The notes under the pieces are model-generated. The model worked only from the letters and a program-made list of their open reading frames with translations. It was not told where the DNA came from and did not search any database. From assembly GCA_965645245.1 (NCBI GenBank), contig OZ287074.1, positions 1,550,001 through 1,614,000 of the forward strand: a stretch of 64,000 bases of DNA, written 5' to 3'. Origin of the DNA: Massalongia carnosa. Its lineage: Eukaryota. Position numbers and translations under genes: made by a program. Shown here one piece after another: positions 31,881 to 56,000 of this stretch (within the stretch, counting starts at the first letter, position 1; every line of letters begins with the position of its first letter).

Positions 31881-33653
31881 ATCGGTCCTCCTCCTTCTAC
31901 ACCATCGGTCCTCCTCCTTCTACACCATCGGTCCTTACCACGGAGACGCCAAAGGCCTCACAGTGGGGCAACCGTCAAATATATAGATTTGCTCCTATCT
32001 CTTCGCATCAAAACAATGCTAATTTAACGCGTTCACACGCGTCGCAGACGTACGTACGGAAGAGGATACGAAGGCCAACCGCCGAGGGTAGAATGCGCGC
32101 GTCCCTGCACCATGCTTTTAAGGGTTCAAGTCCCTTCATGCAGTCATCAGCTGGAAGAAGATGTGGACCAAAGGAGCCGCATCATTCCCCACCCGGTCAC
32201 AGTCGACACGCGTTCTAGCTCCTGAGAGTTCAAGTCTCCCCATGTATTCATCAGCTGGGATCAACAGAACGCGTAAAGGCACCGGATCGAATGCTTTCAC
32301 CTCAAGAAAACTCCATCTCGGAGCAGACTAACAATATCCCATTTAATAGGCCCGGCCTATTAAATAAAATCGAGGAAAACACAGAGTCACAAAACACATA
32401 GTCATCAAGCAAACGTTATAAAGTACACAGTCACAAAGCATACAGTCACAAACATACAGTCACAAACACACAGTCACAAAATACACAGTCACAAAAAACA
32501 CAGTCACAAATCAATAACACGTCCCTGTGAAGGGGGTTCTGCGGGGGCTCGTTAAGACAGATCTGCACCCCGTTAATATCGGATTACATATTTTTAGAGG
32601 TTCAAGGCCTTTCTAGCAGTCATCAGCTGAAAATAATGTATTTTGACACGGGCATGGTGTGGATTTGACACGGGTAGACCTCGATGGATCACAAAACAAA
32701 TGAAAAGAGTTTAGCGAAACTTCGTTAATATTGTTCTCGAAGATCTCGTTAATAAGATTTTCATAGACCTCGTTAACAACGATCGGTTATACTCTTAAAG
32801 GTTCAAGTCCTTTCATGCAGTCATCGGCTGAGAGCTAAAGACGTACGACACGGGTCAGCTATGTCTATCACACGGGCCTCCTTCGTCTACAACACGGAGC
32901 CCTCCGGCTGAAAGAAATAAAACATATAGACACATAGTGTAGGGTCACACCCTACACGATACAAGGGATTTGGGTTATGAAAACAATCCAATTGATTGCT
33001 ACCGTGAGCAACACGGCCCGAACCGGAGACGTAACGGGAATGGTGGAGGCAACCTAGTCAACAAATAGGACACCCTTGGGACAAGAAGAGGGCAATATAC
33101 GAGGAACCCGTTAATTGATAACAGTCTAGGCCCTGAGCTAAAAGACGAATTTCAAACGAGCACCCCTCCGAGTTGTCCTCGACTCGTTTTGGTTAGTAGG
33201 GACGGAAAATCGATACTATACTGCCTGTTCAGGAGCATAGTGCTCGAAATCCCTGCGAGACATAGTCGGTTCATAAACGGGAGACCTTTATGAGTAACGC
33301 GAAGTAGGCGTATAAAACCCGTGAGGCGTGGTATGCAATGGCAGCCACCGTACTGAGACCGTCTGCATAGCCCGAGAGGACAGTATGCGCATGTCGGTGT
33401 ATATAGAGCAGGGAATGTCTATCTCGCTCGTAACGAGACCCCGTTGGTTCGCCGGCGCATGGGCTACGGCTAGACTCGCCCTTGATATATGCTTAAGGAG
33501 TAAACTGGGTTTGACCTGTGCGAAAGGGACGTCGTTCATCCCAATCGTAGAATTCATCAATAATCTTGGGCCGTAAAACGCAAAAGTGAGATAAACGAAA
33601 ACTGGGATAGAGATTTTACGAAGGAGATGTCAACTCTATTTTATCATTCTTAG
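31881..33653 (+). other. Unclassified structured non-coding repeat, copy 2
   Basis: Colinear with copy 1; two 23-nt repeats; same 3' end CATTCTTAG. Confidence 0.85.
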
Positions 33654-34688: not shown

Positions 34689-37488
34689 TTTTTTTATTTT
34701 TTATTTATTCATTAAGTGTATTCAACCTAAGGTTATGACACTAAACTATTTTAGGATATGTTTCTATATTACAAATAAATCAACCCTTTATAACCCATCT
34801 ATGTATTGTCAATTTTTCCCCATTTTTACTCCGTGTTAGTAACAACCTATAGTAATCGAAGAATATCGATTTTAAAATTTGTCTTTGTAAGTTCGTGAAT
34901 TTTTCAGCATAAATCGTTTCTGATTTTACTGTTCGATCTCTCCCCAACCTCCAGTTTCGAAAATCTCGTCATCAAGCTGACCTAGTATCAATTTTTTGGT
35001 CGCGATTTTGTTATTGACAATGAATTTAATAAAAATGTCATTTCCGATTTTTTGTATTAAAAAACATATTCAAGTTGATCGTAGTATCGATATTTTGTTT
35101 CATGTTTTGAATTTCATTGAAATAGTGAATGCAATTCAATAACAAGTATTCTGGCGTTTGTCGTTGATTGCATCGATTTGAGCATTTTGACGAATTTAAT
35201 CTTTCAATCGCTGTAAATATGATCGAAAATAGCCGTGTCCGAATTTTAATTGCATAACAGTACCAAATATCAATTTGGAACAGTTGTTTGATAAATAATA
35301 AAATCTCGATATGCCAGGTTTCATTTCGAATTTCTCGTAGTATTTGCCTTTTGATTTGCATTTTTGCCATTGATTCGTCCATGTGGTAAGCATATTTTGA
35401 TTTTTTTATTTTTATTTATTTATTCATTAAGTTTATTCAACCTAAGGTTATGACACTAAACTATTTTAAGATATGGTTTTATTTTATAAATAAATCAACC
35501 CTTTATAACCCAACTATGTATCGTCAATATTGCCCCGTTTTTACTCCGTGTTAGTAACAACCTTTAGTAATCGAAATATCGATTTTAAAATTTGTTTTTG
35601 TAAAGCTCGTAAATATTCCAGCATAAATCATTTCTAATTTTACTGTTCGATCTCTCCCCAACCTCCCGTTTGGATATTTTCGTCATCGAGCTGACCAAGC
35701 ATCCATTTTCTAGTCGCGATTTTGTTATCAATAATAAATTTAATCAAAATATTATTTCCGATCCGAGTATTAAACAACATTTTTAAAGTAATTGTGGTAT
35801 CGATATTTTGTTTCATGTTTAGGATTTCATTTGAATAATGTATGCAATTCATCAATAAGTGTTCTGGCGTTTGACGTTTGTTGCAGCGCCCTGTGCATTT
35901 TGACGAATTATAATCTTTCAATCGGTGCAGATATGATCGAAAATAACCGTGTCCGAATTTCATTTGCATAATAGTTGCAAATATTAATTTAGAACAATTA
36001 TTCGACAGATAATAAAAACTCGATTTGCCCGGCTGCATTTCGAATTTCTCATAGTATTTGCATTTTGACTTGCATTGTTGCCATTTATTCGCCCATGTGG
36101 CTAACATATTTCGATTTATTTGACCCTTCACATAATCAAATGTTATTATTGAAGACTCGACTAGGATTCCACTATGTCCCGCTTTTGCTGCTTTATCTGC
36201 AATTTCATTTTCGACGATTTTCGAATGACTAGGAATCCATTGTAGAACCACCTGATAATTGTTTCCGAATAAGCATTTCGAGAATTTTCGAATTTGTTTT
36301 GAATAAGTATGATTTGTCAAGTTCTGAATTTCGTTTATTGCGTTTATGCTATCGGAAAAAATCCAAATCGTTTTTTCCAAATTGAAGAGAATATTCGCAA
36401 TTGTCAATTTGTAGGGCCATTTTATATATTTTGATTTATTTGATCTTTTTCATAATCAAATGTTATCGCCGAGGACTCGACTAGGATTTGATTATGGCCC
36501 GTCTTTGCTATTTTGTCTGCAATTTCGTTTTCGGTAATATTTGAATGACTCGGAACCCATTGCAAAATCACCTGAAAATTGCTTTCAAATAAGAGTTTTG
36601 CGAGCTTTCGAATTTGTCTGGCGAAAATATGATTTGTCAAGTTCTGAATTTCGTTTACCGCGTTTATACTATCAGAAAAAATCCAAATCGTTTTTTCTAA
36701 GTTCGATAAAATATTAGTATTCGACAATTTATAGACCCATTTCACTGCTTGTAAAATCGCATGCAGTTCAGCATTTTTAATGCTTGACTGTTTGCTTAAT
36801 TTCCAGCTTTTCGAAATCGTATGATACTTGATCTGACAATCTTTCTCGATAAATCGATTAAAATTATTGATAATATTACTCCAATTCCTTATAATAGGCG
36901 CAAATGTGACTACAGACGTTGCAAATTCGATTTTCGATCCATCTGTATAAAGTAAAACTCGGGATTTATCGGTGTTCATTCATTTAATTTTGGATAAGGT
37001 CGAATAATAACTTGATTTAGCAGATTCCTTTGTATTTTCGATTTGAAATTTGATTTTGCAAGGCGATTTCCAAGGTTTAATAAAATGATTTGATTGTTCA
37101 AATTCATCAGTTTTGTGAACTATGTCGGAAACGGAATGAAGAACGCGAATAAGCTGACTAGGAAGTCGTTTATTTGTTTGTTTTCCGTCTTCGTTCCATT
37201 CGGCATATTTGTTGTTCCATAAACTTGTGTCAAAACCGATATTTTCGAATTTTATCAAATATGTGTTTGGAATTCTTTGACAAATAGGGTTATTTTCGGC
37301 AATCTTCAATAATCGAATTGCGTATTTTTTATTTTTCATTATTAATCGAAGTTTAACTGGTAAAACATGTGATTCAATTTCCATCGCCTGAACAGGTGTG
37401 GTTTTGAAAGTTCCTAAAATCTTTCGAATCATTCGATTTTGCAGATTCTGAAATAGCTTTTCATATTTCTTTTGACCGTTATACCAGA
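34689..37488 (-). mobile_element. LINE family 1 subfamily B 3' part, interrupted by a subfamily A insertion
   Basis: ORFs 36980-37432, 36422-36979 and 35196-35393; tail at 34689. Confidence 0.92.
35404..36425 (-). mobile_element. LINE family 1 subfamily A, 5'-truncated, nested in subfamily B
   Basis: ORF 35640-36407; own tail; TSD ATATTTTGATTT at 35392-35403 and 36426-36437. Confidence 0.92.
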
Positions 37489-39310
37489 CTAAGAATGATA
37501 AAATAGAGTTGACATCTCCTTCGTGAAGTCTCTATCCCAGTTTTCGTTTATCTCACTGGTGCGTTTTACGGCCCAATATTATTGATGAATTCTATGATTG
37601 GGGTGAACGACGTCCCTTTCGCCCAGGTCAAACCCAGTTTACTCCTTAAGCATATATCAAGGGCGACCGTAGCCCATGCGCCGGCGAACCGACGGGGTCT
37701 CGTTACGAGCGAGATAGACATTCCCTGCTCTATATATAACGACATGCGAATACTGTCCTCTCGGGCTATGCAGACGGTCTCCGTACGGTGGCCGCCATTG
37801 CATACCACGCCTCACGGGTTTTTTACGCCCACTTCGCGTTATTCATAAAGGTCTCCCGTTTATGAACCGACCATGTCTCGCAGGGATTTCGACCACTATG
37901 CTCCTGACCAGGCAGTATAGTATCGATTTTCCGTCCTTACTAACCAAAACGAGTCGAGGACAACTCGGAGGGGTGCTCGTTTGAAATTCGTTTATTAGCT
38001 CAGGGCCTAGACTGTTATCAATTAACGGGTTCCTCGTATATTGCCCTCTTCTTGTCCCAAGGGTGTCCTATTTGATGACTAGGTTGCCTCTACCATCCCC
38101 GGTACTACTCCGGTTCGGGCCATGTTGCTCACGGTAGCCATCAATCGGATGGTTTTCACAACCCAAATCCCTTGTATCGTGTAGGGTGTGACCCTACACT
38201 ATGTGTATATATGTTTTATTTCTTTCAGCCGGAGGGCTCCGTGTTGTAGACGAAGGAGACCCGTGTGACAGACATAGCTGACCCGTGTCGTACGTCTTTA
38301 GCTCTCAGCCGATGACTGCATAAAAGGACTTGAACTTTTAAGAGTATGACTGAACGTTGTTAACGAGGTCTATGAAAATCTTATTAACGAGGTCTTCGAG
38401 AACAATATTAACGAAGTTCCGCTGAACTCTTTTCATTCGTTTTGTGATCCATCGAGGTCTACCCGTGTCAAATCCACACCATGCCCGTGTCAAAATGCAT
38501 CATTTTCAGCTGATGACTGCTAGAAAGGACTTGAACCTCTAAAAATATATACGCCGAAATTAACGGGGTGCAGATCTGTCTTAACGAGCCCCCGCAGAAC
38601 CCCCTTCACAGGGACGTGTTATTGGTTTGTTACTGTGTTTTTTGTGACTGTGTGTTTTTTGACTATGTGTTTGTGACTGTATGTTTGTGACTGTGTGCTT
38701 TGTACAACGTATGATTGATGACTATGTGTTTTGTGACTCTGTGTTTTCCTCGATTTTATTTAACAGGCCGGGCCTATTAAATGGGATATTGATATTCTGC
38801 TCCGAGATGGAATTTACTTGAGGTGACAGCATTCGCCCCGGTGCCTTTACGCGTTCTGTTGATCCCAGCTGATGACTGCATGGGGAGACTTGAACTCTCA
38901 GGAGCTAGAACGGGTGTCGATTGTGCCTGGGTGGGGGATGATGCGGCTCCTTTGGTCCACATCTTCTTCCAGCTGATGACTGCATAAAGGGACTTGAACC
39001 CTTAGAAGCATGGTGCAGGGACGCGCGCATTCTACCCCCCGGTGGTTGGCCTTCGTAACTTCTTCCGTACGTACGTCTGCGACGCGTGTGAACGCGTTAA
39101 ATTAGCATTGTTCTGATGCGAAAAGATAGGAGCAAATCTATGTTTGTCGGTCGCTCCACGGTGAGGCCTTTGGCGTCTCCGTGGTGAGGACCGATGGTGT
39201 AGAAGGAGGAGGACCGATGGTGTAGAAGAAGGAGGACCGATGGTGTAGAAGGAGGAGGACCGATGGTGTAGAAGGAGGAGGACCGATGGTGTAGAAGGAG
39301 GAGGACCGAT
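37489..39310 (-). other. Unclassified structured non-coding repeat, copy 3
   Basis: Reverse complement of copy 1; five 23-nt repeats; same 3' end. Confidence 0.85.
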
Positions 39311-39373
39311 ATATAATAATTTGATAGTAAATGTGATAGTAATTTAAATGATGCGGTGGTGCTTTAGTGATAT

Positions 39374-40468
39374 TCCCGTTTGGTAATTCCAATGTGTCTT
39401 TCGATACATTTCTTGTCTTTTCGAAGTGAATCAGCTCGGATTTATCGTCATCAAATTTGACATTATTCGATGCGGCCCAATCAAAGGCCGTTTTGACTAT
39501 GATTTCGATTTCTTTGTAATTCTGTTTTGCAGTTTTATTTTCGACATATATTGCAACATCGTCAATAAAACTGTGAGAATGTGCATTGAATTTCATTCGT
39601 ATTTTTGGAAATAAGTGACGAATGTAAATCAGAAATAGAATAAGCGAGATAGGTGAGCCTTGTGGAAATCCTGATTCGACATAATATGTTTTGCTTAAAT
39701 TTTCATCAAATATCAAATTGATCGATCGTTTTGTCATGAAATGCTTGACCCATTGAATTATTATGCGAGATAATTTCAGCTTTTTCATAACATTTAGCAG
39801 TTGATTAATCGATACAAAGTCAAATGCGCCTTTGAAATCGAGTAATAAACATGATAGGACGTTTTTATTTCTATTTGCAATTTCAATATCATGAACAACG
39901 ATCATTACTGCGTCAATTGCAGAATGATTTTTGCGTCCGCCCATCTGTTCGATATCGAGTAAATTCAAATTTTCGCAGAAGTAGACTAGTCGATTTGAAA
40001 CGATTTTCTCAGCAATTTTACCAAGACAATTTAGTAATGTGATAATTCGATATGATTTTGGAAAAGAATAGTCCGATTTATTAGGTTTTTTCAGAACTGC
40101 ACCGAGTCCTGTCCGCCAGCATAACGGGTGATAACCGATTCGAATGAATTTCGAATAAATCATGAAAAACACGTTTTTCAACGATTGAAACGATTTTTGA
40201 ACAATTGTAAAATTGATTGCATCAGGTCCACATGCTTTCTTCGGATTAAATAAACTAATCGCATTTTTCAACTCGTTTTCCGTCAAATCTGGCCAATTAT
40301 CATCATTTACGCTGTCTTGATTTGATAAATCTTCCTCATTATCGTCAATAAATGGGTTTTTTGTATACATTGCTGACACAAATGCATCGCATTTGTCATC
40401 AAACTGAATATTTAGTTTGTTTTCATGTAGAATCGGGGGTATTTTTTCGAATATGCGCGGTTTAGTGT
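39374..40468 (-). mobile_element. LINE family 1 subfamily B RT segment (continues upstream at 45788-47055)
   Basis: ORF 39138-40379 RT motifs up to ELPNG; joins 45788 across a 12-bp TSD. Confidence 0.9.
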
Positions 40469-43400
40469 TTTTTATTTATTCATTAAGTGTATTCAACCTA
40501 AGGTTATGACACTAAACTATTTTAAGATATGGTTTTAATTTACAAATAAATCAACCCTTTATAACCCAACTATCTATCGTCAATATTGCCCTGTTTTTAC
40601 TCCGTGTTAGTAACAACCTTTAGTAATCGAAATATCGATTTTACAATTTGTTTTTGTAAAGCTCGTAAATATTCCAGCATAAATCATTTCTAATTTTACT
40701 GTTCGATCTCTCCCCAACCTCCCGTTTCGATATTTTCGTCATCGAGCTGACCTAGCATCCATTTTCTAGTCGCGATTTTGTTATCAACAATAAATTTTAT
40801 CAAAATATTATTTCCGATCCTAGTATTAAACAACATTTTTAAAGTAATTGTGGTATCGATATTTTGTTTCATGTTTAGGATTTCATTTGAATAATGTATG
40901 CAATTCATCAATAAGTGTTCTGGCGTTTGACGTTCGTTGCAGCACCCTGTGCATTTTGACGAATTATAATCTTTCAATCGGTGCAGATATGATCGAAAAT
41001 AACCGTGTCCGAATTTCATTTGCATAATAGTCGCAAGTATCAATTTCGAACAATTATTCGACAGATAATAAAAACTCGATTTGCCCGGCTGCATTTCGAA
41101 TTTCTCATAGTATTTGCCTTTTGACTTGCATTGTTGCCATTGATTCGCCCATGTGGCTAACATATTTCGATTTATTTGACCCTTTACATAAAGAAATGTT
41201 ATTATCGAAGACTCGACTAGGATTCGACTATGTCCCGCTTTTGCTGCTTTATCTGCAATTTCATTTTCGACGATTTTCGAATGACTAGGAATCCATTGTA
41301 GAACCATCTGATAATTGTTTCCGAATAAGCATTTCGAGAGTTTTCGAATTTGTTTTGCGTAAGTATGATTTGTCAAGTTCTGAATTTCGTTTATCGCGTT
41401 TATGCTATCGGAAAAAATCCAAATCGTTTTTTCCAAATTGAAGAGAATATTCGCAATTGTCAATTTGTATGCCCATTTTATTGCTTGTAGTATCGCATAC
41501 AGTTCAGCGTTTTTAACTCTTGACTGTTTGTTTAATTTCCAGCTTTTCGAAATCGTATGATGTTTGAGGAGACAATCTTTTTCGATAAAACGATTGAAGT
41601 TATCGGTGAAATTGTTCCAATTTCGCATAATTGGTGCAAATGTGACAGCGGAAGTTGAAAACTCGGTTTTTGATCCATCGGTATAGAGTAACACCCGCGA
41701 TTTATCGGCGTTTATTGATTGGATTTTTGATAAAGTCGAATAATAATAACTTGACTTTGCTGTTTCTTTGGATCTTTCGATTTGGAACTTGATTTTACAA
41801 GACGGCTTCCATGGTTTGATGAAATTATTTACTGATTCGAATTCATCAGTTTTGTGAACTATATCCGAAACGGAATGAAGAATACGGATAAGCTGACTAG
41901 GATGAGGTTTACTCGATTTTTTCTCGTCTTCGTTTTATTCAGAATATCTGTTGTTCCATAAACTAGTGTCAAAACCGATGTTTTCGAATTTCACAGAATA
42001 GGTACTGGGAATTCTTTGACAAATAGAATTATTTTCGGCAATCTTCAATAATCGAATTGCCGAATTTTGATTTTTCATCAACAATCGTAGCTTGGCTGGT
42101 TAAATATGCGATTCAATTTCCATCGCCTGAACAGGCGTGGTTTTGAATGTGCCTAAAATCTTTCGAATCATTCGATTTTGCAGATTCTGAAATAGCTTTT
42201 CATATGTCTTTTGACCGTTATACCAGATTTCTGAGCCATAGTCCGAAATAGGAATAATACATGACAGATAGAGCTGTCTGCATGCAGTTGGCTTTAGTCC
42301 CCATTCAGACTTCATCAAACTTTGAATTGCGAAAAACGATCGATTTGCAGAAGCAATTGGCGTTTCGACGTGTTTTTTGTAATTTAGTTTTCGGTCTAAC
42401 CAGACTCCTAACCATTTGACAGAATTTTTCGGTTCTAGTATTGTCCCGTTTGGTAATTGCACTTTGTCTTTTGATGCATTTCTTGACTTTTCGAAGTGAA
42501 TCAACTCAGATTTGTCGTCATCAAATTTGACATTATTTGTTGCGGCCCAATCAAAAGCTGTTTTGACGATAATTTCGATTTCTTTGCAATTCTGTGTGGC
42601 AGTTTTATTTTCGACATATATAGAAACATCGTCTATAAAGCTAGGTGAATGAGCATTGAATTTCATTCGTATTTTCGGAAATAAGTAACGAATATAAATC
42701 AGAAATAGAATTGGCGAAATAGGTGTACCTTGTGGAATTCCAGATTCGATATAGTACGTTTTGCTTTTGTGATCATAGAATATCAAATTGATCGATCGTT
42801 TTGTCATAAAATGCTTGACCCATTGAATAACTATGCGAGATAAATGCAGCTTTTTCATAACATTTAGCAATTGATTAATCGAAACAAAGTCAAATGCTCC
42901 TTTGACATCGAGTAATAGACATGATAAAACGTTTTTGTTTCGGTTTGCGATTTCGATATCATGAACGACGTTCATTACCGCATCGATTGCAGAATGATTT
43001 TTCCGTCCGCCCATTTGTTCAGTATCTAACAAGCTCGAATTTTGGCCGAGGTAGGCTAGTCGATTAGCAACTATTTTCTCCGCAATTTTACCAAGATAAT
43101 TCAGTAAGGTAATAATTCGATATGATTTTGGCAGCGAGTAGTCTGGTTTATTAGGTTTTTTTAAAACAGCACCGAGTCCTGTTCGCCAACATAACGGGTG
43201 ATAACCGATTTGTATAAATTTAGAATAAATAGTAAAAAACACGTTTTTCAATGGTTGAAACGATTTTTGAATTATTGTGAAATTGATTGCATCAGGTCCA
43301 CATGATTTCTTTGGATTAAACAAACTAATCGCATTTTGCAATTCATTTTCGGTTATATTCGGCCAATTGTTGTCATTTTCGCTTTCTTGATTCGTTAAAT

Positions 43401-43530
43401 CTTCAATATTATCATCCGTGAACGGGTTTTTTGTGTACATTGCTGACACAAACGCATCGCATTTGTGATCGAATTGAACATTTAACTTATTTTCATATTG
43501 AATAGGTGGTATTTTTTCGAACATGCGCGG
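40469..43530 (-). mobile_element. LINE family 1 subfamily A, 5'-truncated
   Basis: ORFs 42100-43524 (RT) and 40696-41694 (RNase H: YTDGSK, NAELYAI, FSDS, WIPSH); tail at 40469. Confidence 0.95.
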
Positions 43531-45264
43531 CTAAGAATGATAAAATAGAGTTGACATCTCCTTCGTGAAATCTCTATCCCAGTTTTCGTTCATCTCACTG
43601 GTGCGTTTTACGGCCCAAGACTATTGATGAATTCTACGATTGGGGTGAACGACGTCCCTTTCGCCCAGGTCAAACCCAGTTTACTCCTTAAGCATATATC
43701 AAGGGCGAGTCTAGCCGTAGCCCATGCGCCGGCGAACCAACGGGGTCTCGTTACGAGCTAGATAGACATTCCCTGCTCTATATACACCGACATGCGCATA
43801 CTGTCCTCTCGGGCTATGCAGACGGTCTCCGTACGGTAGCCGCCATTGCATACCACGCCTCACGGGTTTTTTACGCCCACTTCGCGTTATTCATAAAGGT
43901 CTCCCGTTTATGAACCGACCATGTCTCGCAGGGATTTCGACAGCTATGCTCCTGACCAGGCAGTATAGTATCGATTTTCCGTCCCTACTAACCAAAACAA
44001 GTCGAGGACAACTCGGAGGGGTTCTCGTTTGAAATTCGTCTATTAGCTCAGGGCCTAGACTGTTATCAATTAACGGGTTCCTCGTATATTGCCCTCTTCT
44101 TGTCCCAAGGGTGTCTTATTTGATGACTAGGTTGCCTCTACCATCCCCGGTACGACTCCGGTTCGGGCCGTGTTGCTCACGGTAGCCATCAATCGGATGG
44201 TTTTCATAACCCAAATCCCTTGTATCGTGTAGGGTGTGACCCTACACTATGTGTCTATATGTTTTATTTCTTTCAGCCGGAGGGCTCCGTGTTGTAGACG
44301 AAGGAGACCCGTGTGATAGACATAGCTGACCCGTGTCGTACGTCATTAGCTCTCAGCCGATGACTGCATGAAAGGACTTGAACCTTTAAGAGTATGACCG
44401 AACGTTGTTAACGAGGTCTATGAAAATCTTATTAACGAGGTCTTCGAGAACAATATTAACGAAGTTCCGCTGAACTCTTTTCATTCGTTTTGTGATCCAT
44501 CGAGGTCTACCCGTGTCAAAATACATTATTTTCAGCTGATGACTACTAGAAAGGACTTGAACCTCTAAAAATATGTACTCCGATATTAACGGGGTGCAGA
44601 TCTGTCTTAACGAGCCCCCGCAGAACCCCCTTCACAGGGACGTGTTATTGGTTTGTGACTGTGTTTTTTGTGACTGTGTGTTTTGTGACTGTGTGTTTGT
44701 GACTGTATGTTTGTGACTGTGTGCTTTGTGACTGTGTGCTTTGTACAACGTGTGATTGATGACTATGTGTTTTGTGACTTTGTTTTCCTCGATTTTATTT
44801 AACAGGCCGGGCCTATTAAATGGGATATTGTTATTCTGCTCCGAGATGGAGTTTTCTTGAGGTGACAGCATTCGCCCCGGTGCCTTTACGCGTTCTGTTG
44901 ATCCCAGCTGATGACTGCATGGGGAGACTTGAACTCTCAGGAGCTAGAACGCGTGTCGACTGTGCCCGGGTGGGGGATGATGCGGCTCCTTTGGTCCACA
45001 TCTTCTTCCAGCTGATGACTGCATGAAGGGACTTGAACCCTTAGAAGCATGGTGCAGGGACGCGCGCATTCTACCCCCCGGCGGTTAGCCTTCGTATCCT
45101 CTTCCGTACGTACGTCTGCGACGCGTGTGAACGCGTTAAATTAGCATTGTTTTGATGCGAAGAGATAGGAGCAAACCTATGTTTGACGGTCGCCCCACGG
45201 TGAGGCCTTTGGCGTCTCCGTGGTGAGGACCGATGGTGTAGAAGGAGGAGGACCGATGGTGTAG
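43531..45264 (-). other. Unclassified structured non-coding repeat, copy 4
   Basis: Reverse complement of copy 1; about 1.3 23-nt repeats; same 3' end. Confidence 0.85.
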
Positions 45265-45787
45265 GCTCGTCCGTCTCGAGTCTTATCTGTATCGAGTTCT
45301 GATATTCAGCGGTGAAAAGAGCTCAGAATATCAGGAGCACTGTTTAGGAAATGATATTTAACTGCATGGCTCTCGAGTGCAAGATCGTTTACTATCAAGC
45401 TTTTCTTTCCATTGTATCATAAGAGTAGAGAAGGTGGCAAGCTGATCGTTGGATCCTGTAGACCTGAAGCCTGCTTAATCACGAGGGAAGGCATATTATA
45501 AACTCAGAAAGACACCATAGTCGGTCGATGCAAGCCTTGAATACTCTCAATGAAACCCTATTCTGAAACCACATTCGAAAAATCAAAGGACGGAATGGAG
45601 TAGTAGTGAACAACAGTTTCCGAGGGTTTTCAATAGGTTTGAGAATCTTCTCGAAGATCACCATGACCTTACCTATGTTCCGTCAAGGTAAAGCGGTAGG
45701 ATGCCGACTGCACTTTTCAGCTACATCTCAAGCAGTCTCATGCTGAAACACAAATCGCGGAGAAAGCGTTGAATTTACTCGTTCAGT

Positions 45788-47055
45788 GCGGTTTAGTGTA
45801 TTTATACGCGGTAAATGCATCTTCATTTGCTGCATTTTCTAGAAAAGTCAACCATGTTTGTTGTTTTGCTTTTCGAATTGGATGAAAATACTCGATTCGA
45901 CTATGTTTAAACGTCCGATGACTAAAATCGGACGGATAATTCTTCCATTCTCGACGATGTCTGCACATGGTTTTTCGAAGTTCAGTTAAATCTTGCGACC
46001 ACCAATTTTTCGATTTTGCACAAATTTTCGTTTTCGGAATAAACATTTCAGCCGCGTTTTTGATAACGTTTTGCAAATATATCGCTGATTCTTCGAATTG
46101 TGATTATTCAATAAACTTTGAACTTGTGATTCGTAGATGGTTGAATTTTCGTCTAGATACTTCGCGAATTTATTCCAATCGGCTTTATTGCAATTGTATT
46201 TATTCGATAATGCGGTTGCATGTGACGTCAAGTTTTTGAAAGATGCGATTAGTTCAAATCGGATGACTTCATGATCAGAACCTGTGACTGCGTTTTCATC
46301 AATTGACCAATTTGTAATTGCATTTTCGATTTTAGAATTTGCAAAAGTTAAATCACTAACGGATGAAGAACTTCCAGAATGGGCGTAGTATGTACATAAG
46401 TCAGGTGTGTTTATCAAGCTACACCTGTTTAATTTCAACCATTTGACAAGATTCTCTGATCGAATTGCTTGTTGAATTTTCGAATTCCACCAGTTATGAT
46501 GTGCATTGAAATCTCCACAGATGACGAATTGATCAGTTGATTTAGGTTGTAATTGGATTAAAAGTCGATCGATCGTGTATGTTTCTCGATCACTTTGACT
46601 TTTTTCGTTATAAATATTGAAAATCTGCACTTTTCGAACTTCATCAATTGTAATTTCAATAATTTGCATATCGGAATCGTTAATAAGATCCGTTCTAGGC
46701 GTGCATTGCAGTTTGGAATTGCCATTTGTGACAAATATAGCTACTCTCGAGCGATAAGTCGCTATTTTTTGCATAATACATGTAAATTACGGATGTGATA
46801 TTGTTTTTTGATCTCGTGTCCATGGTTCCTGAAACAAAACAATATCAACTTGATTTGATAATGCATATTCCAAACACGATATCATTGCATTCGTTGACTT
46901 TGCACAATTATGTTGAATAAATTTAACATTTTGTGTATTTTCGATGTTTGTCAACGATTGCTGTCCTGCCATTACAAAGCGGCTAATTCGTCAGTCGATT
47001 TTCGAACATTTAACGATATAACTATTTCACAATTTTCATCATTGGATTGATGATT
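45788..47055 (-). mobile_element. LINE family 1 segment (ORF1 end, APE endonuclease)
   Basis: ORFs 46787-46972 and 45986-46774 (FIQHNC, FQEPW, GDFNAHH, GSDH). Confidence 0.9.
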
Positions 47056-50000
47056 TTTATTTTATTTATTCATTAAGTGTATTCAACCTAAGGTTAAGAC
47101 ACTAAACTATTTTAAGATATGGTTTTATTTTACAAATAAATCAACCCTTTATAACCCAACTATGTATCGTCAATATTGCCCCGTTTTTACTCCGTGTTAG
47201 TAACAACCTTTAGTAATCGAAATATCGATTTTAAAATTTGTTTTTGTAAAGCTCGTAAATATTCCAGCATAAATCATTTCTAATTTTACTGTTCGATCTC
47301 TCCCCAACCTCCCGTTCGATTTTTTCGTTATCGAGCTGACCTAGCATCCATTTTCTAGTCGCGATTTTGTTATCAACAATAAATTTAATCAAAATATTAT
47401 TTCCGATCCGAGTATTAAACAACATTTTTAAAGTAATTGTGGTATCGATATTTTGTTTCATGTTTAAGATTTCATTTGAATAATGTATGCAATTCATCAA
47501 TAAGTGTTCTGGCGTTTGACGTTCGTTGCAGCGCCCTGTGCATTTTGACGAATTATAATCTTTCAATCGGTGCAGATATGATCGAAAATAACCGTGTCCG
47601 AATTTCATTTGCATAATAGTTGCAAATATTAATTTAGAACAATTATTCGACAGATAATAAAAACTCGATTTGCCCGGCTGCATTTCGAATTTCTCATAGT
47701 ATTTGCCTTTTGACTTGCATTGTTGCCATTGATTCGCCCATGTGGCTAACATAATTCGATTTATTTGACCCTTTACATAATCAAATGTTATTATCGAAGA
47801 CTCGACTAGGATTCGACTATGTCCCGCTTTTGCTGCTTTATCTGCAATTTCATTTTCGACGATTTTCGAATGACCAGGAATCCATTGTAGAACCACCTGA
47901 TAATTGTTTCCGAATAAGCATTTCGAGAATTTTCGAATTTTTTTTGCGTAAGTATGATTTGTCAAGTTCTGAATTACGTTTATCGCGTTTATGCTATCGG
48001 AAAAAATCCAAATCGTTTTTTCCAAATTGAAGAGAATATTCGCAATTGTCAATTTGTATGCCCATTTTATTGCTTGTAGTATCGCATACAGTTCAGCGTT
48101 TTTAACGCTTGACTGTTTGTTTAATTTCCAGCTTTTTGAAATCGTATGATGTTTGAGGAGACAATCTTTTTCGATAAAACGATTGAAGTTATCGGTGAAA
48201 TTGTTCCAATTTCGCGTAATCGGTGCAAATGTGACAGCGGAAGTTGAAAACTCGGTTTTTGATCCATCGGTATAGAGTAAAATTTGCGATTTATCGGCGT
48301 TTATTGATTGAATTTTTGATAAAGTCGAATAATAACTTGACTTTGCTGTTTCTTTTGATCTTTCGATTTGGAACTTGATTTTACAAGACGGCTTCCATGG
48401 TTTGATGAAATTATTTACTGATTCGAATTCATCAGTGTTATGAACTATATCCGAAACGGAATGAAGAATACGGATAAGCTGACTAGGATGAGGTTTACTC
48501 GATTTTTTCTCGTCTTCGTTCCATTCAGCATATCTGTTGTTCCATAAACTAGTGTCAAAACCGATGTTTTCAAATTTCACCGTATAGGTACTGGGAATTC
48601 TTTGACAAATAGGATTATTTTCGGCAATCTTCAATAATCGAATTGCGTATTTTTTATTTTTCATCAACAATCGTAGCTTGGCTGGTAAAATATGCGATTC
48701 AATTTCCATCGCCTGAACAGGCGTGGTTTTAAATGTGCCTAAAATCTTTCGAATCATTCGATTTTGCAGATTCTGAAATAGCTTTTCATATTTATTTTGA
48801 CAGTTATACCAGATTTCTGAGCCATAGTCCGAAATAGGAATAATGCATGACAAATAGAGCTGTCTCCATGCAGTTGGCTTTAGTCCCCATTCAGACTTCA
48901 TCAAATTTTGAATTGCGAAAAACGATCGATTTGCAGAAGCAATTCGCGTTTCGACGTGTTTTTTGTAATTTAGTTTTCGGTCTAACCAGACTCCTAACCA
49001 TTTGACAGAATTTTTCGGTTCTAGTATTGTCCCGTTTGGTAATTGCACTTTGTCTTTTGATGCATTTCTTGACTTTTCGAAGTGAATCAACTCAGATTTG
49101 TCGTCATCAAATTTGACATTATTCGTTGCGGCCCAATCAAAAGCTTTTTTGACGATAATTTCGATTTCTTTGCAATTCTGTGTGGCAGTTTTATTTTCGA
49201 CATATATTGCAACATCGTCTATAAAGCTAGGTGAATGAGCATTGAATTTCATTCGTATTTTCGGAAATAAGTAACGAATATAAATCAGAAATAAAACTGG
49301 CGAAATTGGTGAACCTTGTGGAATTCCAGATTCGATATAGTACGTTTTGCTTTTGTGTTCATCGAATATCAAATTGATCGATCGTTTTGTCATAAAATGC
49401 TTGACCCATTGAATAACTATGCGAGATAAATGCAGCTTTTTCATGACATTTATCAATTGATTAATCGAAACAAAGTCAAATGCTCCTTTGACATCGAGTA
49501 ATAGACATGATAAAACGTTTTTGTTTCCTTTTGCGATTTCGATATCATGAACGACGTTCATTACCGCATCGATTGCAGAATGATTTTTCCGTCCGCCCAT
49601 TTGTTCGGTATCTAACAAGCTCGAATTTTCGCCGAGGTAGGCTAGTCGATTAGCAACTATTTTCTCCGCAATTTTACCAAGAGAATTCAGTAGTGTAATA
49701 ATTCGATCTGATTTTGGCAGCGAGTAGTCTGGTTTATTATGTTTTTTTAAAACTGCCCTGAGTCCTGTTCGCCAGCATAACGGGTGATAACAGATTTGTA
49801 TAAATTTAGAATAAATAGTAAAAAACACGTTTTTCAATGGTTGAAACGATCTTGAACTATTGTGAAATTGATTGCATCAGGTCCACATGATTTCTTTGGA
49901 TTAAACAAACTAATCGCATTTTGCAATTCATTTTCGGTTAAATACGGCCAATTGTTGTCATTTTCGCTGTCTTGATTCGTTAGATTTTCAATATTATCGT

Positions 50001-50601
50001 CCGTGAACGGGTTTTTTGTATACATTGCTGACACAAACGCATCGCATTTGTGATCGAATTGAACATTTAACTTGTTTTCATATTGAATAGGTGGTATTTT
50101 TTCAAACATGCGCGGTTTAGTGTATTTATAAGCTGTAAATACGTCTTTATTCGCTGCCTTTTCGAAGAAAGCCAACCAAGTTTGCTGTTTCGCTTTTCGA
50201 ATTGCATGAAAGTACTCGATTCGACTATGTCTAAATGTTTGACGACTAAAATAGGACGGATTATTCTTCCATTCTCGACGATGTCACCACATGATTTTTC
50301 GAAGTCCGGTTAAATCTTGCGACCACTAATTTTTCGATTTTGCGCATATTTTTGATTTCGGAATAAACATTTCATCCGCGTTTTTGATAATGTTTTGCAA
50401 ATATAACGCTGATTCGTCAAATTGATAATTGTTCAATAGACTTTGTATGTGGGACTCGTAGTTTATTGCATTTTCGTCTAGAAACTTCGAGAATTTATCC
50501 CAATCGGCTTTATTGCAGTTGTATTTATTCGATAATGCGGTTGCGTGTGACGTCAAGTTCTTGAAAGAACCGATAAGTTCAAATCGAATAACTTCATGAT
50601 C
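47056..50601 (-). mobile_element. LINE family 1 subfamily A, 5'-truncated
   Basis: 868-aa open RT-RNase H-Zn knuckle frame; 3' UTR and tail. Confidence 0.95.
47231..49837 (-). CDS. LINE ORF2 fragment: reverse transcriptase + RNase H + C-terminal CCHC (longest open frame in window)
   Basis: LLDVKGAFD, GIPQGSPISP, FIDD, YTDGSK, WIPGHS, CTGRC...HLLMNC. Lacks the endonuclease; frameshifted upstream. Confidence 0.85.
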   Translation of the reverse strand: MKNVFFTIYSKFIQICYHPLCWRTGLRAVLKKHNKPDYSLPKSDRIITLLNSLGKIAEKIVANRLAYLGENSSLLDTEQMGGRKNHSAIDAVMNVVHDIEIAKGNKNVLSCLLLDVKGAFDFVSINQLINVMKKLHLSRIVIQWVKHFMTKRSINLIFDEHKSKTYYIESGIPQGSPISPVLFLIYIRYLFPKIRMKFNAHSPSFIDDVAIYVENKTATQNCKEIEIIVKKAFDWAATNNVKFDDDKSELIHFEKSRNASKDKVQLPNGTILEPKNSVKWLGVWLDRKLNYKKHVETRIASANRSFFAIQNLMKSEWGLKPTAWRQLYLSCIIPISDYGSEIWYNCQNKYEKLFQNLQNRMIRKILGTFKTTPVQAMEIESHILPAKLRLLMKNKKYAIRLLKIAENNPICQRIPSTYTVKFENIGFDTSLWNNRYAEWNEDEKKSSKPHPSQLIRILHSVSDIVHNTDEFESVNNFIKPWKPSCKIKFQIERSKETAKSSYYSTLSKIQSINADKSQILLYTDGSKTEFSTSAVTFAPITRNWNNFTDNFNRFIEKDCLLKHHTISKSWKLNKQSSVKNAELYAILQAIKWAYKLTIANILFNLEKTIWIFSDSINAINVIQNLTNHTYAKKIRKFSKCLFGNNYQVVLQWIPGHSKIVENEIADKAAKAGHSRILVESSIITFDYVKGQINRIMLATWANQWQQCKSKGKYYEKFEMQPGKSSFYYLSNNCSKLIFATIMQMKFGHGYFRSYLHRLKDYNSSKCTGRCNERQTPEHLLMNCIHYSNEILNMKQNIDTTITLKMLFNTRIGNNILIKFIVDNKIATRKWMLGQLDNEKIEREVGERSNSKIRNDLCWNIYELYKNKF

Positions 50602-51511
50602 GGGCACACCAACGACCACCTATCGAAACACAAGTACCGCAACTTTTGATACTCTAAAACTTTCACAGTCAATTGAACATCTCTTTCTCAGTCATTTGAG
50701 CTCCTCCAGAGCAAAAACGGACTCAGATTGAGTGTAGGAGAGCTTTAGCAAAGCTCCAGCAGAGATTTTCTGCTGGTCGCACGCGACAGACGTGATAAAG
50801 CGCGCTCAAGAAGTTATAAAAAACAACAAATACCAACAATATCACCAAAAATCGCTCTTTTTTCTCACTTTCTTCTGTTCTGTTGTCGCATTACCCTCAA
50901 ATATTACTACATGAATTATCTACAAAAAATATCTACTGTCGCGGTACTGTACAACAACTGTCGCGACGACCAACTTTTTTGAAGTTCATTTCTCATTTAA
51001 GGTTACGGGAACTTCCGCAAGCTCAAATATTCACAGTATATTTCACGTATAATTTCTGCATATACCATTTTAGGCTTTATCGATCTCCATTGAACGGCCG
51101 GTCAACAGATCACTGAAAAGAAGGGGAAAAACGTCTGGAATAGGATTATACCAAAGATCCTATTTCAGATTAATCAGAATAGGAAGTCTCTTATTATCTT
51201 ACCTTGCCTTAGATCTATTTTTATCGCAAAAAAGCAAAAAAAAAACCTTTCATTATTTTCAACTATTGTAGTGTCTGGTAAAGGGTTAAATAAGATTTAC
51301 TGCCTAAGCGAGGAACGGTCTATTTTAACCCGATTAGGATTTATTTGACGAGCTATTGTCATATAAATAGGGATAGGAAAGCAAGAGTCGTTAGACCTGT
51401 AAATTGGTGTAAATTTCTATTCTGATTAGTACGTCCGGGGAACATCAGAATAAATTATTTGGTGGTGATAAAAGGGATATTGAAAAGGCATATCGATTTA
51501 TTTATTAAATC

Positions 51512-53086
51512 ATGTTCAATCCGGTACTCCCTAGGACTCGACGAATTATATCGAGAGCCTCCCCGGGAACACCCCTGAGCACTCCTCAAAACCCTCCCCA
51601 AATGGAATCTCCGGGGCTCTCGTCAGTAGGACTTATAGAAAAATCGCCTGTACTTGACGAGCCTATGGATCAATCACATGAATAATCGTCCGCCCCGACT
51701 ACGCCGACCCCAAAAGCAACCAAATTCCCATCTGGATAATTTACTACCAATCTACCCATGCCATCGTTAAATTCTAATATAGAATTAAGCCCGCCTATCA
51801 AACGTAACAAACGAAAAACATTCGACGAACGAGTAGAGGAAAGCCAAGAAGCAATCAGTCGAGCACAATCGATTGGATTACTCAAAACGGCTAAAGCCGC
51901 GTTATTGAAGTCATTTGTCTTAGATCAAAATCCAGAAACAGCAATAGTCATTGATAATGTCAATTCCTTATTGACAAAAAAATCAATTAATATCAAAACA
52001 ACACTAGACATGATGAATTGGAAATTGGACAAGGTAATTGATCAGACTAGTAATCGAACCTCAGAAACAACGCGAAAATCGACTCGGGTTCAACAAGTCA
52101 ATATGACTGAAAATCCAAATAAAGTCGTCAACACGAACGCACGAAAGGAAACCGCCGGGGTTACGAGTACAAAGGTCAATAACACGCCTCCATCCTGGAG
52201 TCAAATGCTTGGAAAAGCAACTGCGAATTCCGAAAAGTGGACCACTGTTTCCAGATCGAAAAATTCGAGTCAAACCTCGAACAAACTCGACAAAACCGAC
52301 GAATAAATTTCAATCAAACTCAGACGACTGATAATTACACCAAAAATTCAAATCGGCGATATCGACTCATTGAAACTTCGAGATCAAATCAACGCGCAAT
52401 TCAGCAACGCGAAGTTAGATAGCTTAATCAACACGGTCGAAAAATCGAAAACCGGTCAGAATATCGTTCTCACTACTAGTTCGAAAAACACTGCTGCAGA
52501 ATTGTTGGAAAACAAATCTATATGGGAACATATGTTCGATGCACAAAGAATTCGAAAAGACGAATCCTGGTTTAAAGTGATCGCACATGGAGTAAATATT
52601 GCAACGTTTGATCAAAATATGCAATTTTTGCAAAACGAAATCCAGAAATTCAACCTTAACATAGAATTGTGCGATTTACCCAGATGGCTAGCGCGAGATC
52701 GCGAAAATAAAGTCAATTCTTCGGTCGTTTTGACTTTTAACAATCGAAATCAGGCCTTAAACGCGTTAAAAGGCGTAAATATCGCGGGAAAACACTGTGA
52801 CACGGAAATATTTACTTCCGTTCGTCCGAATACACAATGTATTAATTGTCAAAAATTCGGACACAAGCATTATCAGTGTCGAAACAAATCAAAATGCAAT
52901 ATTTGTGCACAAAATCATGAAACACGTAATCATGAATGCATAACATGCAAATCGAAAACTGCGTGTGCACACGTTGTTGTGAAATGTGCAAACTGCAATA
53001 AAAATCATCAATCAAATGATGAACATTGTGAAATGTTTACTGCATTAAATCCACGAAAATCGGCTGACGAATTATCCGCCTTATAA
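51512..53086 (+). pseudogene. LINE ORF1 (gag-like, Pro-rich N-terminus, three Cys/His knuckles) with in-frame stops
   Basis: ATG 51512 is in frame with ORFs 51758-52306 and 52370-53086; CINCQKFGHKHYQC, CNICAQNHETRNHEC, CANCNKNHQSNDEHC. Confidence 0.88.
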
Positions 53087-56000
53087 TGGCAGGACAGCAT
53101 TCGTTGGCAAATATAGAAAATACTCACAATGTCAAATTTATTCAACACAACTGTGGAAGGTCAACGAATGCAATGATTTCGTGTTTGGAATATTCTTTAT
53201 CAAATCAAATTGATATTGTTTTGTTTCAGGAACCATGGACACGAGATCAAAATACAATATCACATCCGTCATTTCCATGCATTATGCCGAAAATAGCAAC
53301 TTATCGCTCGAGAGTAGCTATATTTTTCACAAAATGCAATCCCAAACTGCAATGCACGCCTAGAACGGATCTTATTGACGATTCCGATATGCAAATTATT
53401 GAAATTACAATTGATGAAGTTCGAAAAGTGCAGATTTTCAATATTTATAACGAAAAAAGTCAAAATAATCGAGAAACATACACGATCGATCGACTTTTAA
53501 TCAAATATCAACCTACATCAACTAATCAATTCATCATATGTGGAGATTTCAATGCACATCATAACTGGTGGAATTCGAAAATTCAACATGCAATTCGATC
53601 AGAAAATTTAGTCAAATGGTTGAAAATAAACAAATGTAGTTTGATAAACACACCTGGTTTATGCACATTCTACGCCATTCTGGAAGCTCATCATCTGTTA
53701 TTGATTTAACATTTGCAAATTCAAAAATCGAAAATGCAATTACAAACTGGGCAATCGATGAAAACGCAGTCACAGGTTCAGATCATGAAGTCATCCGATT
53801 TGAACTAATCGCATCTTTCAATAATTTGACTTCACATGCACCCGCATTAGCGAATAAATATAATTGCAATAAAGCCGATTGGAATAAATTCGCGAAGTTT
53901 CTAGACGAAAATTCAATCAACTACGAATTAAAAGTTCAAAGTTTATTGAATAATCATCAATTCGAAGAATCAGCGATACATTTGCAAAAAATTGTCACAG
54001 GTTCAGATTATGAAGTCATCCGATTTGAACTAATCGCATCTTTCAAGAATTTGACGTCACATGCAACCGCATTATCGAATAAATACAATTGTAATAAAGC
54101 CGATTCGAATAAATTCGCGAAGTTTCTAGACGAAAATTCAATCAACTACGAATCAAAAGTTCAAAGTTTATTCAATAATCATCAATTCGACGAATCAGCG
54201 ATACATTTGTAAAAAATTATCAAAAACGCGGCTGAAATGTTTATTCCGAAAACAAAAATATGTGCAAAATCGAAAAATTGGTGGTCGCAAGATTTAACCG
54301 AACTTCGAAAAATCATTTGCAGGCATCGTCGAGAATGGAAGAATTATCCGTCCGATTTTAGTCATCGGACGTTTAAACATAGTCGAATTGAGTATTTTCA
54401 TGCAATTCGAAAAGCAAAACAACAAACCTGGTTGACTTTTCTAGAAAATGCAGCGAATAAAGACGTGTTTACCGCGTATAAATATACTAAACCGCGCATA
54501 TTCGAAAAAATACCGCAGATTCTACATGAAAATAACTTAATGTTCAGTTTGATGACAAATGCGATGCGTTTGTGTCTGCAATGTACACAAAAAACCCATT
54601 TATAGACGATAATGTCGAAGATTTACCAAATCAAGACAGCGAAAGTGATGATAATTGGCCAGATTTGACCGAAAACGAGCTGCAAAATGCGATTAATTTA
54701 TTTAATCCGAAGAAAGCATGTGGACCTGATGCAATCAATTTTACAATTGTTCAAAAATCGTTTCAATCGTTGAAAAACGTGTTTTTCATGATTTATTCGA
54801 AATTCATTCGAATCGGTTATCACCCGTTATGCTGGCGGACAGGACTCGGTGCAGTTCTGAAAAAACCTAATAAATCAGACTATTCGCTACCAAAATCATA
54901 TCGAATTATCACATTACTAAATTGTCTTTGTAAAATTGCTGAGAAAATCGTTGCAAATCGACTAGCCTACTTCGGCGAAAATTCGAATTTACTAGATATC
55001 GAACAGATGGGTAGACGCAAAAATCATTCTGCAATTGACGCAGTAATGAACGTCGTTCATGATATCGAAATTGCGAATCGAAATAAAAGCGTTTTATCCT
55101 GTTTATTACTCGATGTCAAAGGCGCATTTGACTTTGTCTCGATTAATCAACTGCTAAATGTCATGAAAAAGCTGAAATTATCTCGCATAATAATTCAATG
55201 GGTCAAGCATTTCATGACAAAACGATCGATCAATTTGATATTCGATGAAAACAAAAGCAAAACATATAATGTCGAATCAGGAATTCCACAAGGTTCACCA
55301 ATCTCGCCTATTCTATTTCTGATTTACATTCGTCAATTGTTTCCGAAAATACGAATGAAATTTAATGCACATTCTCCCAGTTTTATTGACGATGTTGCAA
55401 TATATGTCGAAAATAAAACTGCAAAACAAAATTGCAAAGAAATCGAAATCATAGTCAAAAAAGCTTTTGATTGGGCCGCATTGAATAATGTCAAATTTGA
55501 TGACGATAAATCCGAGCTGATTCACTTCGAAAAGACAAGAAATGTATCGAAAGACACATTGGAATTTTTAAACGGGACAGTACTAGAACCGAAAAATGTA
55601 GTCAAATGGTTGGGCGTCTGGTTAGACCGGAAACTGAATTTCAAAAAACACGTCGAAACGCGAATCTCTTCTGCGAATCGATCGTTTTTTGCAATTCAGA
55701 ATTTAATGAAATCCGAATGGGGTCTGAAACCGACCGCATGCAGACAGCTCTATTTGTCATGCATTATTCCTATTTCGGACTATGGCTCAGAAATTTGGTA
55801 TAATGGTCAAAAGAAATATGAAAAACTATTTCAGAACCTACAAAATCGAATGATTCGAAAGTTTTTAGGAACTTTCAAAACCACACCTATTCAGGCGATG
55901 GAAATTGAATCACATGTTTTACCAGTTAAACTTCGATTATTAATGGAAAATCAAAAATACGCAATTCGATTATTGAAGATTGCCGAAAATAACCCTATTT

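Follow-up and report, generated by a model that had tools for sequence, protein, structure and literature searches.

A tripartite LINE–passenger chimera inside a single target-site duplication in the Massalongia carnosa assembly

The insert described here is 5,319 bp long and interrupts a long interspersed nuclear element (LINE) in the genome assembly of Massalongia carnosa (GCA_965645245.1, contig OZ287074.1). It was analysed within a window of 64,000 nt, i.e. the whole stretch from position 1,550,001 to position 1,614,000 of the forward strand, and all coordinates are counted from the first letter of this window. The insert combines the 3′ part of a second LINE with a non-coding element, here called the passenger, and with a further piece of 523 bp, all enclosed by one target-site duplication (TSD). 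Judged from its sequence, it is a LINE-mediated template-switch chimera of a known kind, i.e. of the MINE or U6-L1 type, and a fungal example of that kind.

Chimeric retrocopies of small nuclear RNA (snRNA) and L1 in mammals were reportedly described by Buzdin and colleagues in 2002–2003. Microhomology-mediated 5′ attachment of L1, with “chimeric L1” elements arising when nascent complementary DNA (cDNA) anneals to a resident L1, is said to go back to Zingler (2005), Gilbert (2002) and Symer (2002), and Bibillo and Eickbush reportedly found end-to-end template jumping by the reverse transcriptase (RT) of R2, with a role in formation of the 5′ junction.

The closest described system is MINE of Magnaporthe grisea, in which, according to the sections of the source used here, a 1.1-kb non-coding RNA named WEIRD is fused to the LINE MGL truncated at 28 sites (PMC2104539). 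In the same sections no solo WEIRD copies are reported, the TSDs are 10–20 bp long, the switch context is GCC*A/U with no microhomology, and a TSD of 14 bp encloses one tripartite WEIRD-MgSINE-MGL chimera (PMC2104539). The other known class, as presented in the sections consulted of its source, is that of the U6-L1 or snRNA-L1 chimeric retrocopies of mammals (PMC4476161).

Composition and target site of the insert

Two LINE subfamilies with ca. 85% mutual identity, LINE-A (e.g. 47060–50601) and LINE-B (e.g. ca. 50625–57559), were distinguished in the window. The latter copy (B3), which is near full-length, was taken as the coordinate reference (ref; 6,935 positions), and the sense strand of the LINEs at this locus is the minus strand of the window.

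Read on the minus strand, the insert consisted of the unique 523-bp piece (45265–45787, its strand being taken from its neighbours alone), a non-coding passenger copy of 1,734 bp (copy 4, 43531–45264, ending ...CATTCTTAG at 43531), and the 3′ 3,062 nt of a LINE-A copy (A2, 40469–43530), which was 5′-truncated at CCGC and closed with the tail ...GAATAAATAAAAA at 40469. The three segments were fused directly to each other inside the single TSD (40457–40468 and 45788–45799). The original prediction had given the same minus-strand order, i.e. an unknown sequence (45787–45265), passenger copy 4, and LINE-A to its tail, and every coordinate of it holds.

The A2 segment was 96.8% identical to the LINE-A copy at 47060–50115 over 3,061 aligned bp, carried coding sequence for RT and RNase H (by homology to another copy that was profile-tested), and its tail agreed with nine other LINE 3′-ends. 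The 523-bp piece had no second copy in the window, no open reading frame (ORF) longer than 67 amino acids and no Rfam match, and its longest sense ORF, of 67 amino acids, had no homologue among proteins of 36–118 amino acids. Compared with the LINEs of the window, the 5′ segments were not inverted LINE pieces of the sort that marks 5′ inversion by twin priming.

The target was another LINE-B copy (B2) on the minus strand, of which the portion 3′ of the insertion site (39374–40468) corresponds to ref 54484–55577, and the portion 5′ of it (45788–47061) to ref 52997–54495, including the endonuclease domain. The 12-mer GCGGTTTAGTGT was present at both ends of the insert, the unstranded left copy (40457–40468) being LINE-B2 sequence of ref 54484–54495 and the equally unstranded right copy occupying 45788–45799. 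A 12-bp repeat flanking ca. 5.3 kb had thus been located correctly beforehand, and the TSD proved to be LINE-B's own sequence. In total, six matches to GCGGTTTAGTGT occurred in the window against a chance expectation of 0.19; beyond the TSD pair, three LINE copies matched exactly and one with a mismatch. Because the 12-mer is repeated in other LINE copies, it is LINE sequence, and its repetition by itself is weak evidence.

The decisive evidence is the alignment of the interrupted copy with intact LINE-B, the sense strand of which reads ...GCGTATAAAT ACACTAAACCGC GCATATTCG... In B2, the 5′ half terminated with ...ACACTAAACCGC, where the unique 523-bp piece begins, and the 3′ half resumed immediately after the LINE-A tail ...GAATAAATAAAAA with the equivalent of ACACTAACCGC, i.e. 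ACACTAAACCGC GCATATTCG. The two halves rejoin base-exactly, with 12 bp duplicated and zero loss of target. The reading frame over the insertion site is Y-K-Y-T-K-P-R, and the ORF entering the insert terminates in ...AYKYTKPH; the rejoining of the LINE-B halves at YKYTK|PR, noticed earlier from the translations, was confirmed as an exact alignment with a 12-bp overlap. Identity of the B2 halves was 96.2–96.6% to two LINE-B copies, 93.6–94.5% to B3, and 85–87% to LINE-A.

The length of the duplication is ordinary for this locus. TSDs were found for three other LINE inserts in the window, i.e. 12 bp for a LINE-A insert inside B2 (A1), 12 bp with one mismatch for a LINE fragment within a copia-like element, and 14 bp for a LINE fragment at 13840–14540. 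The nick context on the plus strand was ...AGTGT^ATTTAT at the insert and similar at A1 (...GATTT^ATTTGA). The TSD search in the window found none for passenger copies 1–3, for the LINE at 27901–31430, or for the LINE-A at 47054–50601.

The single 12-bp TSD of usual length, the normal tail junction and the exact rejoining of the target together make it well supported that a single endonuclease-type event brought the three segments into LINE-B as a unit. The original prediction went further and placed two template jumps within a single event of target-primed reverse transcription; its integration as one unit stands on the TSD, the tail and the rejoining, and both joins may or may not have been made in this very event.

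Passenger element and its joins to LINEs

All four passenger copies of the window ended in ...CATTCTTAG fused directly, in LINE orientation, to LINE sequence, each at a different coordinate. Copy 1 (15272–17138, plus strand, with 23-mer repeats) was joined to LINE-A-type sequence at ref 55079 (17138/17139 in the window), copy 2 (31897–33653, plus strand) to LINE-B at ref 52287 (33653/33654), copy 3 (37489–39310, minus strand, with ca. 5.5 23-mer units and lying inside LINE-B2) to LINE at ref 55796 (37488/37489), and copy 4 at ref 54492 (43530/43531). Contigs from four public runs with three organism labels, one run being labelled as a lichen metagenome, contained at least two further junctions, in which the passenger end met LINE positions equivalent to 43107 and 43196. 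One run-derived junction was a 3,220-nt contig from a run with a different organism label. In these contigs the LINE and the passenger were present in high copy and the 523-bp piece in low copy. Because one constant passenger end was fused to different LINE coordinates (four of four copies and at least two run-derived cases), the comparison supports the view that the passenger–LINE join is of the type made by template switching of the RT.

The joins also had a common context. Relative to the intact LINE, the base left uncopied at the six junctions was A in five and C in one, and the first copied bases were CC in four and TC in two, giving an overall context of A|YC. At four of the six (copies 1 and 4 and the two run-derived junctions) the CC was also present in the intact LINE, so that two letters fit both sides; with a CC frequency of 0.020–0.025 in the LINE, the probability of at least four such cases in six is ca. 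1e-5. We infer from this overlap a 2-nt pairing of the cDNA end ...GG with a passenger RNA whose predicted 3′-end is ...CUUAGCC. One extra base that is absent from the LINE reference was seen at copy 1 (C) and at copy 2 (T).

RNA folding upstream of the five switch sites that could be mapped on LINE-A gave no consistent strong hairpin, and the folding quantile at copy 4 was 0.50 with a 40-nt window, 0.28 with 60 nt and 0.15 with 100 nt. With such ordinary predicted folding, a structure-induced pause does not account for the copy 4 breakpoint.

Copy 3 shows a different arrangement of the same parts. It is preceded by a 63-bp A/T-rich filler (39311–39373), and copy and filler together (37489–39373, within LINE-B2 at 36426–40468) replace 218 nt of the LINE, ref 55578–55795, without a TSD, while the LINE junction itself follows the common pattern (GAAA|TCTGG). 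The arrangement resembles what would result if the RT, while synthesising B2 or its ancestor, had left a broken LINE RNA for the passenger and then returned to the LINE RNA. The structure supports the view that the RT bridges breaks in its template by jumping and acquires the passenger en route.

Copy 4 was 93.9–94.7% identical to the three other passenger copies. The longest stop-to-stop ORF of the passenger was 103 amino acids. At the gathering threshold Rfam gave no matches in the whole window, and a search of 43400–45900 in E-value mode returned only a chance-level match to a bacterial small RNA. A hammerhead ribozyme reading of the CTGATGA motifs on the plus strand was unsupported, there being no Rfam match.

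All four copies finish ...TCTATTTTATCATTCTTAG, and the 3′-end of the passenger (...TATCATTCTTAG) carries no (TAAA)n tail. No copy was solo (0/4 in the window). With neither a LINE-like tail nor a solo copy, the passenger was rejected as a short interspersed nuclear element (SINE) or other non-autonomous retroelement that mimics the LINE tail. The last 120 nt of the passenger folded no better than shuffled sequences (z = -0.06).

The other, 5′ end is formed by a 23-mer tandem repeat, CTACACCATCGGTCCTCCTCCTT, with ca. 5–6, 2, 5.5 and 1.3 units in copies 1–4, the arrays lying at 15272–15390, 31880–31940, 39185–39310 and 45225–45264. Copies 1–3 begin at the identical base, the A of ...CCA|TCGG, and copy 4 begins out of phase; on its sequence, the common start may be a transcription start.

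Each copy further contained three or four modules resembling the T-arm and acceptor of transfer RNA (tRNA), i.e. AAGGGTTCAAGTCCCTT-CATGCAG... and GGTTCAAGTCC...CATGCAGTCATC, of which copy 4 holds four at 44359–45039. The modules were confined to the passenger copies, and 15 of 15 motif matches were on the LINE-sense strand with 0 expected. ARAGORN with default settings found no tRNA, and only with relaxed thresholds did three of the four modules receive weak tRNA-like calls, all of them on the minus strand. The strand of these modules, together with precedent, suggests that the passenger is read in the sense of the LINE. A passenger RNA of the opposite strand, acquired by a twin-priming-like route with Cs derived from the cap, is less likely on the same two grounds.

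A 15-mer tandem array, TTTGTGACTGTGTGT, with ca. 9 copies lies at 44651–44783 inside the passenger, and its length varies among the copies. Metagenome scans with the 3′-end of the passenger and with that of the LINE found nothing. Sequences with no other copy in the window are located 5′ of passenger copies 2 and 1 (31431–31879 and 14553–15271, respectively). The latter is continuous with 13163–13839 across a LINE fragment with a 14-bp TSD, and is therefore probably ordinary flanking DNA.

LINE breakpoint, order of events and alternative explanations

The breakpoint of the LINE-A segment is placed with respect to its own target. A2 starts with CCGC at ref 54492–54495, which are the last four nucleotides of the 12-mer homologous to the TSD (ref 54484–54495); truncation at the position homologous to the target site had been proposed earlier (CCGCGC at 43530), and the alignment agrees. 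The chance of a breakpoint inside the 12-mer is 12/6,935, i.e. ca. 0.2%, or ca. 1 in 170 when only CC sites are counted, which puts it at about 0.2–0.5%. Same-orientation LINE-in-LINE inserts with a TSD number two in the window, which gives a corrected chance below about 1%.

We regard it as probable that the composite was formed by template switching and integrated once. A LINE ribonucleoprotein would have nicked the resident LINE-B on the plus strand after ...TTTAGTGT, and reverse transcription of LINE-A RNA would have been primed at the (TAAA)n/A tail of that RNA. Having copied 3,062 nt, the RT would have left the LINE-A template at a CC dinucleotide and resumed on the exact 3′-end of the 1.7-kb non-coding passenger RNA, continuing for 523 nt more beyond it. 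The switch from LINE to passenger may have been aided by pairing of two nucleotides, the ...GG of the cDNA with the ...CC of the passenger RNA. Joining of the cDNA to the far side of the 12-bp staggered break would then have left the composite retrocopy within one TSD.

Several points weigh against this account. None of the contigs of the public runs, which are short, spans any of the four insert junctions by 31 letters on each side, and the 7.7-kb structure is without independent long-read support; an empty site in the contigs would be indistinguishable from any intact LINE-B, and absence cannot be shown by contigs of such length. The passenger transcript, with its orientation and its ends, is predicted from sequence. 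Two of the six junctions, those of copies 2 and 3, are without the shared CC. The coincidence of breakpoint and target site is a single case, and in the other comparable insert, A1 in B2, the target is at ref 56845–56856 and the 5′-end at ref 56540, so that the cDNA extended ca. 305–316 nt beyond the homologous point. Finally, viewed as a k-mer graph, the contigs suggest one common junction between the 523-bp piece and the passenger, with more than one context upstream of 45788, and a second jump made anew agrees with this less well than does a parent copy or a pre-existing unit of 523 bp and passenger.

This last point leads to the strongest alternative, in which the whole of the 523-bp piece, the passenger and LINE-A from ref 54492 existed beforehand, or the 523 bp make up the upstream portion of an extended passenger transcript, and the composite was retrotransposed as one RNA. 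Zero or one template jump would then belong to this event, and the match of breakpoint and target would be due to chance. In two runs, 45788 is the exact endpoint of the contigs that cover the 523-bp piece, and one contig from a third run continues past that position for 36 letters unlike the window. A 211-nt contig passes unbroken from the 523-bp piece across 45264/45265 into the passenger, on which side it has 29 letters, below the 31-letter bridging rule. Several upstream contexts would be in keeping with a master locus, a parent chimera or a passenger transcript of greater length, the contigs being too short for proof, and the 523-bp piece may accordingly extend the passenger transcript at its 5′ end, or the whole chimera may descend from an earlier chimera. 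There is also precedent, since the sections used of the Magnaporthe source describe transcribed MINE chimeras and six pairs with a common chimerisation site (PMC2104539). On the other hand, the LINE breakpoint differs in all four window copies and in at least two run junctions, so new joins are common; short contigs cannot show the absence of other structures; and the coincidence of 0.2–0.5% is left unexplained. We hold inheritance of a ready-made composite to be clearly the less likely course, if one to be taken seriously.

Separate insertions are very improbable. LINE-A would have entered LINE-B first, its 5′-end being resolved by homology at CCGC, and the 523 bp with the passenger would have arrived later at that junction. 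The 4-bp CCGC is indeed found on both sides of these two segments, and a LINE-A/LINE-B junction resolved by homology is what would be expected for a same-orientation LINE-in-LINE insertion. However, a second hit at the identical base would be required, and 4 bp is short of the 12–14 bp TSD of this LINE. Moreover, the passenger is always fused by its 3′-end to LINE sequence (4/4), so that the joint was made in reverse transcription and not by DNA insertion.

Hardly any credence is due to the remaining proposal, that the 12 bp are no TSD and that the whole of B2 came from one RT run hopping from LINE-B RNA to LINE-A, the passenger, the 523 nt and back to LINE-B with 12 bp re-copied, or that the region is misassembled: copy 3 within the same B2 does replace 218 nt without a TSD, resembling a jump out and back, and the region is a dense repeat nest, but 12 bp is an ordinary TSD length here, the plus-strand nick context ...GTGT^ATTTAT is like that of A1 (...GATTT^ATTTGA), the point of departure would be T|AC, unlike the A|YC of all six passenger junctions, and misassembly joins within shared sequence, whereas the four junctions here are non-homologous and the outer two match through the TSD.

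With template switching and a single integration as the preferred account, the position of the LINE-A breakpoint could itself have a cause, and pairing of RNA with the target, with or without RNase H, is plausible from the sequence as what set it. After staggered cuts, the sole single-stranded target DNA would be the 12-nt interval, which is homologous to the incoming RNA and cDNA. In a first version, the plus-strand overhang, i.e. the primer ending GCGGTTTAGTGT-3′, would pair perfectly with the homologous 12-mer of the LINE-A RNA, and an RNase H cut in that hybrid would place the 5′-end of the RNA inside the 12-mer. In a second version, the minus-strand overhang ending ...CCGC-3′ would compete for the last four bases of the cDNA, GCGG-3′, so that the RT would lose its template there and, rather than the DNA end, take up a passenger RNA with a terminal CC.

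The general form of this proposal is speculative, and we consider it rather doubtful: in same-orientation LINE-in-LINE insertion, the 12-nt overhangs would pair with RNA or cDNA, RNase H or strand competition would end the template, and the RT would escape by end-to-end jumps onto bystander RNAs that pair with the cDNA end through ...CC. If true, homology of the target would be a direct cause of both 5′ truncation and chimera formation, and copy 3, with 218 nt of the same LINE skipped, would be a further instance of a template break repaired in this way, i.e. by a jump. Searches of open-access full text found no published survey that asks how often LINE-in-LINE insertions are truncated at the homologous coordinate.

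Repeat environment and known template-switch chimeras

The window is a eukaryotic repeat nest, with copia-like and DDE-transposase ORFs at 2–13 kb. Its dominant repeat is the LINE of ca. 6.9 kb, which encodes an APE-type endonuclease, an RT and an RNase H; the Pfam matches, in order, were Exo_endo_phos_2 (1e-19), RVT_1 (6.7e-33) and RNase_H (1.4e-10), an I/Tad-like architecture. Neighbours of the RT-RNase H protein in the Atlas were mostly from Ascomycota and Arthropoda. Together with the copia-like and DDE-transposase ORFs and the run labelled as a lichen metagenome, this suggests a fungal host, probably an ascomycete.

Where its endonuclease region ends, the reference LINE-B contains an internal tandem duplication of 229 bp at 53769–54222 (94% identity), and this stretch is single or double in other LINE copies. 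The tail of a LINE-A copy (A3, at 47054–47063) abuts the 5′-end of LINE-B2 without a TSD, which could be a tandem LINE-LINE join via a template jump, or an insertion into the tail; the 5′-end of A3 stands head to head with that of the reference LINE-B (50601–50625). At 26107–31430, a plus-strand LINE-B breaks off at ref 55788 and is followed directly by the tail of an inverted LINE-B (27901–31430), the remainder of the plus-strand copy being absent; only 8 nt separate this breakpoint from ref 55796, at which the LINE joined to passenger copy 3 starts. Other mobile elements were an unrelated second RT fragment (338–928, minus strand), a set of DDE-transposase-like ORFs (2298–4031, plus strand), and a copia-like gag-integrase-RT element (8525–12131, plus strand), which is split by a LINE fragment of 522 bp that has a TSD of 12 bp.

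As a chimera, the insert has the structural features of its kind, i.e. a truncated LINE with a normal tail, a constant passenger end, variable breakpoints, and a TSD of usual length (12 bp, copy 4); the passenger would be a separate transcript whose 3′-end forms the junction. It would represent a second fungal system, after MINE of Magnaporthe, in which a long non-coding RNA owes its spread solely to hitch-hiking on the reverse transcription of a LINE, and it adds another tripartite chimera within one TSD. Two observations go beyond the precedent, namely the 2-nt CC overlap at most passenger–LINE junctions and the one LINE breakpoint inside the sequence homologous to its own TSD. Should the latter recur throughout the genome, homology of the target would be tied to 5′ truncation, a poorly understood step of LINE integration.

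With the 5′ attachment models of L1, the insert shares a predicted attachment point, since the LINE-A cDNA ends in GCGG, which would pair with the 3′-end of the opposite overhang, ...CCGC. Here, however, the cDNA was not attached at this place; the copying of 2.26 kb of other sequence came first. The end-to-end jumping of R2 is comparable in that acceptor molecules are entered at their 3′-ends.

As far as the sections used of its source describe them, the U6-L1 chimeras are similar in that the exact 3′-end of a non-polyadenylated RNA is fused to a variably 5′-truncated LINE in one TSD, and they are explained there by template switching during target-primed reverse transcription (PMC4476161). 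The present case differs in its long passenger, in a LINE that carries RNase H, and in a host that is not a mammal.

The likeness to MINE, as portrayed in the sections used of its source, is closer: a kilobase-sized non-coding RNA, copied in full length and with a 3′-end lacking poly(A), is fused to 5′-truncated LINEs at many breakpoints, solo copies were seen in neither system, the host is a fungus or, here, probably one, the chimera is flanked by one TSD, and a tripartite case lies in a single TSD of 14 bp in Magnaporthe and 12 bp here (PMC2104539). The differences lie in the passenger, its position, the junction and the target. The passenger is 1.73 kb long instead of 1.1 kb and has 5′ 23-mer repeats and tRNA-like modules, in a comparison with WEIRD as described (PMC2104539). 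It forms the middle of the tripartite insert, with the 523 nt as the 5′ part, whereas in the Magnaporthe chimera, on the same partial view of the source, the non-coding RNA is the 5′ part and the SINE is in the middle (PMC2104539). The junction here is A|YC with a shared CC in four of six cases, against GCC*A/U without microhomology in the sections used on Magnaporthe (PMC2104539). Finally, relative to the sections used of that account, the insert here lies in a further copy of the same LINE, with a breakpoint that corresponds to the target site (PMC2104539).

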